Part shown: in pieces, positions 23,525-33,995 of the stretch
How positions within the stretch are numbered: position 1 is the first letter of the stretch
Layout of the letters: the number at the start of each line of letters is the position of its first letter
Source of the DNA: Eledone cirrhosa
Taxonomy: Eukaryota
Assembly: GCA_964016885.1 (NCBI GenBank)
Contig: OZ024757.1
Coordinates: 3,844,001 to 3,908,000 of the forward strand
Direction of reading: 5' to 3'
DNA: 64,000 bases
Position numbers and translations under genes: made by a program
Notes under the pieces: generated by a model
Told to the model about the DNA's origin: nothing
Database searches by the model: none
What the model saw: the letters and a program-made list of their open reading frames with translations, nothing else

Positions 23525-23616
23525 AGGGTTCTGACGAGCCACAGATTACAGAGTCGGGATAGATCGATACAGATCGAACCTTGAGCTGATCAGTGGCGAA
23601 ACGCGCGTCACCAACC
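23525..23616 (+). ncRNA. Type-I hammerhead motif with extended stem II, inside a probable PLE pLTR (~23455-23660)
   Basis: CTGACGA-GCCAC-(50 nt)-GTGGC-GAAA-CGCGCG-TC, followed by AATAAA and a (TA)n tract. Confidence 0.75.
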
Positions 23617-23984
23617 AATAAACGTAATGAAGGAGTAATCAATCGTCGTTGTTATTTCACTATATATATTTATATATATATATTTATATATATATATTTA
23701 TATATATATATTTATATATATATATTTATATATATATATTTATATAATGTGTGTGTGTGTGAGAGAGAGAGAGAGAGAAAGAGAGGGAGAGAGGGAGAGA
23801 GAGAGAGAGAAAGAGAGAGAGTGTGAGAGAGAGAGAGGGGGAGAGAGAGTAGTTTAGTTACTGACGGGTCACCAGTTTGACCACTCAATACTACTATTTA
23901 GGTCCAGCTAGTGATGTGGGATTGTTTGGTATTTCACCACAGTTGGTATCTTAAGAAGCAGGGGGTTGATAATAATAATTATTA

Positions 23985-24157
23985 TTTCTACTTTTAACAC
24001 AAGGCCAGCAATTATATCAGTGTATTACTGGTACTTTATTTTATCAACCCCATAAGGATGGAAGGCAAATTTAACCTCAGCAGGATTTGAACTCAGACCA
24101 TAAAGGGCTGTAACTCTATACTGAAAAGTGTCCGACCCTCTACCGATACTGCCAAAT
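23985..24157 (-). mobile_element. tRNA-derived SINE (family A)
   Basis: Minus strand has A-box-like TGGCAGTATCGG and B-box GTTCAAATCC. Body aligns by eye with copies at 24217, 34467, 35179, 46904. Confidence 0.85.
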
Positions 24158-24216
24158 AATATTAATAATAGTTTATACTTTTGGCACAAGGCAAGCAATA
24201 TAATAATAATAATAAT

Positions 24217-24415
24217 GGTTTCTGATTTAGGCACAAGGCCAGCAATTTTGGGGGAGGGGAAAGTCGATTGAATCGACCCAGTGCATTACTGCTAGCTTAT
24301 TTTATTGACCCCGTAAGGATGAAAGGCAAAGCCATCCTTTGAACTCAGATCGTAAAGGGAAATAACTCTATACCATAAGACGTTATCTGACACTCTACAG
24401 ATACTGCCAATCCAC
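24217..24415 (-). mobile_element. tRNA-derived SINE (family A)
   Basis: Same body (GGCACAAGGCCAGCAATT ... GACCCCGTAAGGATGAAAGGCAAAG ... TTTGAACTCAG). Confidence 0.85.
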
Positions 24416-24759
24416 AGAAGAAGAAAGAAGAAAAAGAAAGAAGAGAGACGAAGAAAAAGAAGCATGAACATAATATCATTGTTTATTCATCCGTGGCGCA
24501 CGTTTCACAGTACGATCGGTGGAATGGACAGCTCATCAGTCTTGTGGATTCTTGAGATATATATGTATATATATGTATATATATGTATATATATATTATA
24601 TATATGTATATATATATATATATATATGTGCGTGTGTGTGTGTCGATAAACATATGACAAAAAATCGATGAAAAAATGAGCTCGACTTATATTCAAGGTC
24701 AATATTTTGCCCATTTTAATCAACTTCGAAATTTTATTTAAATGAGGAGCTAGAATATT

Positions 24760-24908
24760 TTCACTTTAAAGATGGATATTACACCGGTTTTACTTTGGAG
24801 GTGAATATTACACCTGTTTCACTTTAGAGATAAATATTACACCGGTTTCACTTTAGAGATGAATATTACACCGGTTTCACTTTAGAGGTGAATATTACAC
24901 CGGTTTCA
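24760..24908. repeat. 29-bp minisatellite (TTCACTTTAGAGATGAATATTACACCGGT), ~5 copies
   Basis: Visible tandem repetition. Confidence 0.9.
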
Positions 24909-25216
24909 GATTCAACGGAAAATTTGTATTTCCTATTTGTTTTATACGTTTTGAAAGATTTTCACCTTTAAATCGTTCGAATATTAGCAGAAAAATCCTT
25001 ATGTAATGAAGTTGTGAAACGAACGACACAAAATGTTTAAATATTTTAAATATCGAAATATTAAAACTTCATAAATATATCCTTCGGGAATTTCAAGACT
25101 GCACTAATCTAAACAAGGTCTTTATTACATCGGCTTATAAACAGGGTTTGGCTGTTTGTCTATTTCTCAAACATTAAATAAGAGTCAGATTATATTCTAA
25201 ATTTAGTCTTATGTCT

Positions 25217-31169: not shown

Positions 31170-31170
31170 C

Positions 31171-31862
31171 CACTCTATATATACTATTGTATTTTCACAG
31201 TAAAGACTTTACATCACATAATATCTCACATACCATTCACATTACTCTATATATACTATTGTATTTTCATGGTAAAGACTTTACCTCACATAATATCTCA
31301 TATAACATTTACATTACTCTATATTTACTATCGTATTTTCACAGTATTGGCTTAATCTCACATATCTCACATAACATTTACATTACTCTATATATACTAT
31401 TGTATTTTCACAGTAAAACTTTACCTCACATAATATCTCACATAACATTTACATTACTCTATATATATACTATTGTATTTTCACAGTAAAGGCTTTACCT
31501 CACATAATATTTACATTACTCTATATTTACTATTGTATTTTTACAGTAATGGCTTAATCTCACTTATCTCACATAATATTTATATTACTCTATATATACT
31601 ATTGTATTTTCACAGTAAATGTGTTACCTCACATAATATCTCACAAACATTTATATTACTCTATATATTCTATTGAATTTTCTCGGTAAAGACTATACCT
31701 CACATAATATCTCACATAACATTTACATTACTCTATATATACTATTGTATTTTCACAGTAAAGTCTTTACCTCACATAATATCTCATATCATTTACATTA
31801 CTCTATATTTACTATCGTATTTTCACAGTTATAGCTTAATCTCACATAATATCTCACTTAAT
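31171..31862. repeat. 72-bp satellite, right part
   Basis: Same unit as 26357-28260. Confidence 0.95.
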
Positions 31863-32254
31863 ATCGAATCTATGTGACCTTGTCATTATTTATTTTGTGA
31901 ACAATACGTTATCATCAGTATGAACGTTCAGTTACAGCGAGTTTTAACAGAAAGAGGTGAGAGAATTCTGGCTAGATATGGCCAGTTTAAATGCTAAAGC
32001 ATTAATGCTTACTTCAAACACTATAACAGCAGACGTCGGCCAGACGAGTCGCCACGCATGGATGTGTACGACAACTTGACCTAGATGGAGATAATAGTCG
32101 CTAATCTATAGGAAGTCCCCCAGCTGTGATCTTACCGAAAACAAACCAACAAGTGAATATGGTAACACACCCCTATGCCAGAGTGGATGCTAGCATATCA
32201 GAAGGAATTGGAATAATATTAAACCAGTCTCAGACTCGAGTCAACATGTTAACA

Positions 32255-32345
32255 GATATTTGATGAGGTTCCGATTCTAGAGTCAGGTTTGATAATTAAT
32301 AGATCGTTCCTCGAGCTGATCGACAGTGAAACATATGTAACATAT
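32255..32345 (+). ncRNA. Degenerate hammerhead motif with extended stem II (related to 23525)
   Basis: TTGATGA ... GATTCTAGAGTCAGG ... AGATCGTTCCTCGAGCTGATC ... GAAA-CATATG-TA. Confidence 0.55.
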
Positions 32346-32442
32346 AATTAAATATGTATATGATCAACACTGATTATGTGTTCCCTTATATATATATATA
32401 TATATATATATATATATATATATATATATATATATATATATA

Positions 32443-32639
32443 TAACGAAGGAAATGTGGTAAGGAACCAGGTGGACCATAACGCACCAAAGTACTCAATA
32501 CTTGAGGTAGTAGAGTGGGTAATAGGAACCAGTAAGACCCCGACAGCTGAGCTCAAGCCGTTTCGACGGCTAATTCAGCCGTCAGAATTAGCCGTCGAAA
32601 CGGCTTGAGCTCAGCTGTCGGGGTCTTACTGGTTCCTAT
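32443..32639. mobile_element. Short fold-back element between (TA)n tracts
   Basis: Inverted arms 32522-32574 / 32583-32639. Confidence 0.7.
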
Positions 32640-33995
32640 ATATATATATATATATATATATATATATATATATATATATATATATATATATATATATATA
32701 TATATATATACATATATATATATATACATATGTATATATATATATATATATGTATATATATAGTAATAATAATAAATTTGAACACTAAAATCCAAAGAGG
32801 GCTCGATAAGGATATTTTAATAAATATATATATATATATATATACATATATATATATATATATATATATATATATATATATATATATATATATATATATA
32901 TACTATATATATATATATATATATATATATATATATATATATATATATATATATATATATATATATATATATATATATATACATATATATATATATATAT
33001 ATATATATATATATATATATATATATATATATATACATACATATATATATATATATATATATATATATATATATATACATATATATATATACATATATAT
33101 ATATATATATATATATATATATATATATATATATACATATATATATATATATATATATATATATATATATATATATATATATATATATACCTATATATAT
33201 ACATAGATATATATATATATATATATATATATATATATATATATATATATATATATATATATACATATATATATATACATATATATATATATACATATAT
33301 ATATATATATAATATATATATATATATATATATATATATATATATATATATATATATATATATATATATATATATATATATATATATAGAACACTGGAAG
33401 GTAATATCCGTAATGGTAGAGTACATGGGACGAGTTAGGTAGAAGTGGTTACACAACAGTTAGTTCACCATACCGAGAACAATTGTTTCACCTTAGCGGA
33501 TCCTTCTGAGGATCCGCTAAGAGAATATGGTCTGAAATCATTAGACGTGTCCGTCGAACCTGCTGGTCCAGAATCAGACAGCTCCACACAATGAATGCAC
33601 CTCGAGCTGTGCGCCGGCGAAACAATTGTAATACAAAATAAATTGAGTTCAGATGCATCACTGATTTTTCGTTTTCTATTCTATCATATTCTGCTCCGTA
33701 AGAGCATAGAGTGCTCAACCGGCATACCCCCTATGGAAGCATCTTAGCTACCATCATATATATATATATATATATATATATATATATATATATATATATA
33801 TATATACATATATATATACACATATATATATATATATATATATATATATATATATATATATATATATATATACATATATATATACACACATATATATATA
33901 TATATATATATATATATATATATATTTATATATATATATATATATATATACATACATATATATATATATATATATATATATATATATATATATAT
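32640..33995. repeat. Long (TA)n tracts interrupted by short inserts (32761-32822, 33389-33755)
   Basis: Direct inspection. Confidence 0.92.
33547..33634 (+). ncRNA. Degenerate hammerhead with extended stem II (third relative)
   Basis: GTGT-ccgtcga(core with 2 mismatches) ... CAGAATCAG ... CCTCGAGCTG ... GAAA-CAATTG-TA-ATAC. Confidence 0.45.

Follow-up and report, generated by a model that had tools for sequence, protein, structure and literature searches.

The stretch analysed here, hereafter the window, comprises 64,000 nucleotides (nt) of contig OZ024757.1 of Eledone cirrhosa (assembly GCA_964016885.1, positions 3,844,001 to 3,908,000 of the forward strand) and is numbered from its first letter. 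The DNA is of animal type and rich in repeats, among them minisatellites, fragments of retroelements and extended TA runs, and these repeats look octopus-like. Within it, three diverged loci resemble the hammerhead ribozymes of Penelope-like elements and carry an extended stem II in which two short sequence boxes recur. Sequence inspection found the loci where an earlier note on this DNA had placed them. The evidence discussed below comes from these three copies, from public sequencing runs aligned to a stretch around locus 1, and from the literature.

All three loci lie on the plus strand and share one layout: a core box, 11 nt, a left box (YAGARUCRG), 21 nt in locus 1 and 22 nt in loci 2 and 3, a right box (CCUYGAGCUG), 9 nt from its GAGCUG to GAAAC, and an 8-nt palindrome that ends in GU and is followed by C or A. 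The distance between the core box and GAAA, put at about 60 nt in the earlier note, is 60, 61 and 61 nt in loci 1, 2 and 3. Locus 1 (23527-23613) is a type I hammerhead with a strict core. It has a stem I (23527-30 with 23610-13) that is damaged in the window copy, the catalytic box CUGACGA (23531-23537, as read from the sequence) and a stem II of 60 nt (23538-23597), composed of a 9-bp proximal helix with 8 of 9 positions paired, a 2-nt bulge, the conserved module and a distal hairpin. The left box (23549-23557), defined by the shared pattern and a column test, faces the right box (23579-23588) in the hairpin, and summed read depth peaks over the latter. The GAAA box and palindromic stem III follow (23598-23609), with a cleavage site predicted after C23609 from the hammerhead consensus, and then a tail of about 50 nt (23610-23660) up to a (TA)n run; read depth drops at 23654-58 and the loose ends of the reads enter TA repeats. 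Locus 2 (32256-32343) is a decayed relative with the core UUGAUGA (32260-66), left box at 32278-86, right box at 32309-18, GAAA and palindrome at 32328-38, a predicted site after A32339 and a tail to about 32386, again followed by (TA)n; its proximal stem II is paired at 6 of 9 positions. Locus 3 (33547-33634) is a diverged relative with the core CCGUCGA (33551-57), left box at 33569-77, right box at 33600-09, GAAA and palindrome at 33619-29, a predicted site after A33630 and a longer tail, to 33755, before (TA)n. A second GAAAC with the stem III palindrome of locus 3 lies on the minus strand at 33478-33521, adjoining a 13-bp perfect hairpin, and is probably the fold-back junction of an inverted piece.

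It is very probable that the three loci represent one hammerhead lineage of the Penelope type with a long stem II. The core CUGANGA plus GAAA...UH is complete in locus 1, carries C3U in locus 2 and carries U4C and A6U in locus 3. Stem I, which has 3-7 bp in this type, is paired at four of four positions in locus 3, three of four in locus 2 and two of four in locus 1 (three with a read variant), and a G-C pair at the opening of stem II (G10.1-C11.1) occurs in locus 1 only. The claim that only the first copy has an intact core needs qualification: a strict CUGANGA is indeed confined to locus 1, but its stem I is mismatched at 23529, and the C at core position 4 of locus 3 also occurs in a read-supported subfamily and need not be decay. 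The palindromic stem III is present at all three loci as ACGCGCGT, ACATATGT and ACAATTGT. The Rfam model Hammerhead_1 (RF00163), the consensus of which agrees with locus 1 in the core and GAAACGCGCGUC words, matches only the 3' half of locus 1 with 19.7 bits, below its gathering score of 34 because of the insert; loci 2 and 3 gave no Rfam hammerhead match. The 42-43 nt between the 9-bp proximal arms exceed the 3-10 nt that the descriptor of minimal hammerheads allows for loop 2. The traits of a pseudo-long-terminal-repeat (pseudo-LTR) are present, namely a 3' tail, a microsatellite site, an inverted 5' piece and a high copy number, the last measured for the locus 1 family. With the hammerhead 47-125 nt before a TA run, an inverted piece upstream and 3' ends of two alternative kinds, the arrangement agrees with what has been published on Penelope-like insertions (PMC8557442, PMC11167929). 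The three loci do not form a tandem array, unlike non-LTR retrozymes.

The two boxes, described in the earlier note as YAGARTCRG and CCTYGAGCTG, match as a pair at exactly three places in the window and at none in 100 shuffles; a pattern of GAGCTG..GAAACNNNNGT also matches three times, against a mean of 0.02 by chance. Both patterns were built from these same loci, so that the counts speak to rarity and not to independence. The words GATT, AGATCG and GATC recur in loci 1 and 2, likewise as claimed. In the alignment of the three loci, invariant columns number 15 of 19 in the boxes, 7 of 42 in the remainder of stem II and 10 of 13 in the catalytic core. When columns were permuted, this clustering was equalled in 3 of 1500 shuffles for windows placed anywhere and in 2 of 5000 for windows facing each other (p 0.0004-0.002). 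Pairwise identity is 7 of 9 in the left box and 9, 9 and 10 of 10 in the right box, with 13, 13 and 5 of 22 in the middle segment, 3-6 of 11 and 4 of 9 in the proximal arms and 5, 5 and 3 of 7 in the core box. The earlier note would have abandoned its idea had the insert been no more alike than the flanks; the boxes clearly exceed the 40 nt upstream (11, 17 and 18 of 40) and the tail (16, 23 and 26 of 45). A covariance model of the three loci revealed no fourth copy in the window, its next matches, at 26 bits or less, being short-stem hammerheads and hairpins. A pattern scan for homologues returned 75 metagenome and 2 viral-contig matches. All 77 were judged to be chance, since every one lacks the palindrome of stem III and a word resembling the core stands within 30 nt in 14 of them (one mismatch allowed); stricter patterns gave no matches in viral contigs or prokaryote genomes.

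The hammerhead fold named for the three loci pairs 77.3% of 75 cells of the alignment, as opposed to 68.6% in shuffled alignments (1 of 500) and 28-39% in slid controls, and its covariation score of 0.413 was equalled by 1 of 500 shuffles. Two-sided changes occur in 7 of 25 pairs: two in stem I, three in proximal stem II and two in stem III. The earlier note had taken the differing palindromes of stem III as covariation. Their pairing is complete in all three loci and two pairs changed on both sides, but this bears on homology and not on the insert, because the literature lists a palindromic stem III as characteristic of all minimal hammerheads of this kind (PMC4209133). In an unconstrained RNAalifold prediction, the boxes pair with each other as YAG/CUG, a 2x1 all-purine loop, UC/GA, a bulged Y and RG/CU. 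All four variable box columns are compatible with this module, two as unpaired bases and two as wobble changes. Stem II of locus 1 folds with -20.1 kcal/mol when free (z -2.6 relative to mononucleotide shuffles) and -19.8 kcal/mol when forced into the module. In the predicted fold of the whole of locus 1, the 5' strand of the core pairs with a strand of stem III (p 0.93-0.99); a predicted dimer gains 9.3 kcal/mol and has the palindromes paired, but the inactive core pairing persists.

Information on the wider family came from four of nine listed sequencing runs aligned to 23290-23658 at 80% likeness, a stretch that holds more than one repeat. From organism A, 9040 contigs (run X1) and 4153 raw DNA reads (run X7) aligned; runs X5 and X6 (organisms B and C) contributed 13 and 1 contigs, mostly partial, and say nothing firm on other species. 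Summed contig depth, which is not copy number and applies to the locus 1 family only, is 3,700 at 23524-36, 24,000 at 23537-49, 114,000 at 23550-62, 481,000 at 23576-88, 89,000 at 23641-53 and 7,300 at the end. This marks the locus 1 family as a very abundant repeat that ends at the TA run, and the depth of 114,000 over the left box as against 3,700 over the core indicates that the insert is shared more widely than its core flanks. Among the 40 of 198 variants listed, 15 lie in 23524-23655 and none in the left or right box. T23529G (136/136 and 12/13) restores stem I of locus 1 to three pairs. C23542T (45/68 and 91/151) and G23593A (425/650 and 333/733) are both common and together would turn a C-G pair of proximal stem II into U-A, so that these read variants look compensatory. 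Before 23544, 176 contigs (agreement 0.66) and 248 reads (0.73) end in loose sequence with a CCGACGA core and a GCUUUU arm, which pairs at five of six positions with a 3' arm carrying G23593A and G23595A. These ends point to one subfamily in which stem I, core and proximal arm have changed and which still aligns across the insert; its U4C core matches that of locus 3. Directly upstream of locus 1, an inverted piece of the longer 3' end of the locus 1 repeat (23433-23515, minus strand) is identified by a separate depth peak at 23433-23510 and by one contig (X5 record 11), which reads 23606-23657 on the plus strand, then 50 other letters, then 23515-23467 on the minus strand. Another high-copy hammerhead family lies back to back with locus 1 at 23290-23430 (minus strand); its core is decayed in the window copy and intact in a loose end present in 73 contigs.

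Based on these observations, we propose that the loci belong to a Penelope-like lineage with a selected module in stem II, most likely a protein-binding site, a joint reading to which we assign a probability of about 40%. Its parts differ in strength: that the boxes are kept by selection is probable, and that selection, if it acts, acts on protein binding is somewhat better than an even guess. The loci would be 3'-end (pseudo-LTR) fragments of one old, branching Penelope-like lineage, or of non-autonomous elements derived from it, with (TA)n runs as insertion sites. In each, a type I minimal hammerhead would carry an irregular hairpin of about 40 nt where loop II normally has 3-10 nt. Judging from the family, the core would cut the element RNA behind the NUH site, and two copies would together complete stem III by way of the palindrome. 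The facing boxes may form a small module of 3 bp, the 2x1 all-purine loop, 2 bp, a bulged pyrimidine and 2-3 bp, a fold of which we are less sure. Selected at the RNA level, this module would be a putative binding site for the reverse transcriptase-endonuclease of the element or for a host protein, and the bound protein would hold the RNA and aid a core that misfolds alone. The near-identical spacing in three copies whose flanks sit near background identity speaks for such selection. A protein-binding site that aids folding is favoured because the Penelope-like hammerhead of Anolis cleaves only with the protein of its element (PMC11167929) and because locus 1 is predicted to misfold alone. The further proposal that a dedicated binding module in stem II makes cleavage depend on the element's protein, and that a natural hammerhead subclass of this kind thereby allowed subfamilies with a U4C-weakened core to reach very high copy numbers, is speculative and on present evidence unlikely.

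The main rival explanation takes the insert as a passenger hairpin: an ancestor acquired a long loop II, perhaps by a short tandem duplication, any stable hairpin was then tolerated, and the boxes are only what common descent has preserved best, pairing being needed weakly at most. Several points weigh against a selected module. The loci number three and the boxes were chosen from the same three. No pair of the module shows a two-sided change in the three-locus alignment, under the named fold or the RNAalifold fold, and 5-25% of unconstrained related alignments pass the shuffle control applied above; four of four tolerated transitions are expected by chance in about 13% of cases (counted by hand, a transition being tolerated at 12 of 19 positions). 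In locus 2 (-8.5 against -9.2 kcal/mol) another fold is better than the module, and so it is in locus 3 (-11.0 against -14.8, a difference of 3.8 kcal/mol), where the right box is re-paired with the locus's own middle segment in a perfect 7-bp helix (33578-84 with 33604-10). Alignment at 80% likeness favours the best-kept segment, and the read variants are unphased, with 40 of 198 variants and 20 of 492 loose ends listed. None of the three loci adjoins a Penelope open reading frame (ORF) for reverse transcriptase or GIY-YIG endonuclease. In Anolis, the ORF begins at stem II and the minimal RNA starts 20 nt into the ORF (PMC11167929), and therefore stem II is not the binding site there. For a passenger in particular speak the missing two-sided changes in the module, the re-pairing in locus 3 and the spacers of 14, 20, 31 and 85 nt, without a shared module, in other hammerhead families of the window; in addition, locus 1 contains four copies of a 6-mer (16 of 300 shuffles). 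These short repeats are, however, absent from loci 2 and 3, the boxes are kept as well as the catalytic core (15/19 and 10/13 columns) while the adjoining arms are not (3-6/11 and 4/9), and the subfamily with other arms and core retains the insert. A passenger hairpin is a serious alternative, although we consider it doubtful.

Other explanations of the conserved boxes carry less weight. The internal loop might dock on stem I, the 3' flank or a dimer partner and so speed cleavage, perhaps offsetting U4C. Hammerheads are usually accelerated by contacts between loops I and II, and contacts outside the core have been proposed to compensate for variant cores. U4C, a natural variant with slow cleavage in vitro that is nevertheless viable in a viroid (PMC3088659), recurs in a subfamily of this repeat. 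But the loop lies 12 bp from the core and stem I has only 3-4 bp, and shifting the contact positions by 1-2 bp lowered activity in tested hammerheads (PMC3088659); from this geometry, a contact with stem I is unlikely. The three copies share no conserved partner sequence beyond the AU-rich stretch common to such hammerheads as described, and a tertiary contact of any kind is improbable. Decidedly improbable is an element acting in DNA, in which the boxes would belong to the internal promoter of the pseudo-LTR or serve there as a site recognised by an endonuclease, and would pair only incidentally. It would explain sequence kept without two-sided changes and the retention of both boxes by locus 3 in a different fold, and promoters occur in pseudo-LTRs (PMC6765202); it leaves aside that the boxes stand exactly opposite each other in the hairpin and that all four variable columns fit pairing, and a B-box-like word occurs in no locus but locus 1, where its spacing is shorter than a tRNA-type promoter requires. 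An element ORF running through stem II was suggested by three of four variable box positions being third codon positions (Glu-Ser, Leu-Glu-Leu) and by the Anolis ORF that begins at stem II. This coding reading is very improbable and already largely refuted: the box spacing of 29, 30 and 30 puts locus 1 out of frame, the insert contains stops in loci 1 and 3, the tail has stops shortly after its start in loci 1 and 2, and the common read variants at 23593 and 23595 alter residues yet fit pairing. Hardly credible is a relic or chimera of a hairpin ribozyme, with AGUC over YGAG as a 4x4 loop similar to hairpin loop A and a second cleavage site. The equivalents of G8 and A9 are present in all three loci, A10G is a known active variant (PMC8216279) and GAAAC is common to the hammerhead core and hairpin loop B (PMC8370743). 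Yet locus 3 lacks the invariant G+1, the base at position 11 is C, in contrast to the G or occasional A of natural ribozymes, the 3' strand of loop B has no consistent place, 12 bp instead of the usual 4+5 separate the loops, and Rfam gave no hairpin match.

Two known RNA motifs were considered and rejected. A kink-turn, assessed by hand against the consensus, leaves its canonical stem unpaired in some of the three copies, and a box C/D snoRNA lacks CUGA after the right box in locus 3, with only weak, unrelated snoRNA matches.

The hammerheads of Penelope-like elements cut poorly alone, and one tested case depends on the protein of the element. A separable conserved module with thousands of natural variants would make the coupling of ribozyme and protein testable by deleting or swapping one hairpin. 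If cleavage indeed depends on the element's protein through such a module, no RNA handle linking a Penelope-type ribozyme with its reverse transcriptase would have been defined earlier; if the module is a passenger, the lineage is merely one more family of Penelope-type hammerheads. Standard descriptors, with a loop 2 of at most 10 nt, and Rfam miss abundant families with a long stem II, two of which occur in this window.

The second of these families is an unrelated hammerhead with an 85-nt stem II, a long irregular hairpin of -23.6 kcal/mol, at 41430-41533 (minus strand) and 43249-43352 (plus strand). Its two copies share 98.8% identity over 171 nt and stand in inverted orientation on either side of a 5'-truncated ORF (42157-43263, minus strand), which has a GIY-YIG match, resembles the Hydra-clade alignment by eye and is linked to this hammerhead. 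Kinship of its stem II (41441-41526) with the extended stem II of the three loci was rejected, the best local scores being only 10-14. Ordinary minimal hammerheads of several families, often in inverted pairs, lie at 13955, 15334, 37329, 37795 and 46473 on the plus strand and at 15214, 24539, 35604, 36221, 36686, 37152, 44615 and 46162 on the minus strand; those at 36221-37152 are inside a 465-nt tandem repeat, like a non-LTR retrozyme. A near-perfect inverted repeat of 118 nt (32522-32639) has arms resembling a hammerhead's 3' half in which stem III is longer and ends in a palindromic loop. Of three ORFs for reverse transcriptase (28338-30934, plus strand; 39764-40996 and 17126-17731, minus strand), two have Pfam RVT_1 matches, whereas the third has no Pfam match and weak similarity to the Penelope-like ORF. 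Long minisatellite arrays with units of 54/97 nt and 29 nt occupy 1-13600 and 54330-64000, and a run of N lies near 15450-15660. In an Rfam scan of the whole window, nearly all of the 150 matches listed, out of 331, were microRNA models on TA repeats, and all 150 were below gathering scores.

Minimal hammerheads in the pseudo-LTRs of metazoan Penelope-like elements were described by Cervera and de la Pena (2014, PMC4209133). The present loci share with them the CUGANGA and GAAA boxes, the short stem I, the palindromic stem III and the AU-rich 3' flank, as well as the occurrence of many diverged families per genome, mostly as solo truncated copies. They differ in stem II: the published descriptor specifies a helix II of 3-7 bp and a loop 2 of 3-10 nt, in place of 60-61 nt with a conserved internal module, and the 2014 search would therefore have missed this family. 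The statement in the earlier note that stem II of Penelope-type hammerheads is normally short agrees with this descriptor, but long loops have precedents, in the 85-nt spacer of the window and in two Selaginella PLE-X elements with a loop 2 of 29 and 35 nt (Craig et al. 2021, PMC8557442). The same paper reports eight cases of a Naiad "HHR_half_core", one from Octopus, with core halves 35-50 nt apart. The hammerheads of the Hydra clade and PLE-X likewise stand near the 3' end and prefer (TA)n for insertion; the text searched describes no conserved loop 2 module. A motif search of its supplement returned neither form of the right box, nor the word that forms stem III in locus 1, and two shorter words once each in unrelated context; line breaks can hide matches. 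The other literature searched (also PMC6155905, PMC13725137, PMC10085705 and PMC6962438, in the passages searched) describes neither these boxes nor a conserved module in stem II, repeat libraries and the survey of Luense et al. 2017 lying outside the scope of the search. Non-LTR retrozymes (PMC7229834; bioRxiv 10.64898/2026.07.22.740005) are tandem repeats, whereas the three loci are solo. The Anolis Poseidon element PAc (PMC11167929) also has a Penelope-type hammerhead followed by a short tail and serves as a model for a protein-needing ribozyme; its compact stem II overlaps the ORF start and contains no inserted module. The conserved boxes can be regarded as credible, support for their fold is partial, and protein binding is a plausible role. 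The lineage belongs to a known ribozyme type, from which its long stem II sets it apart; it is real, abundant and apparently undescribed.

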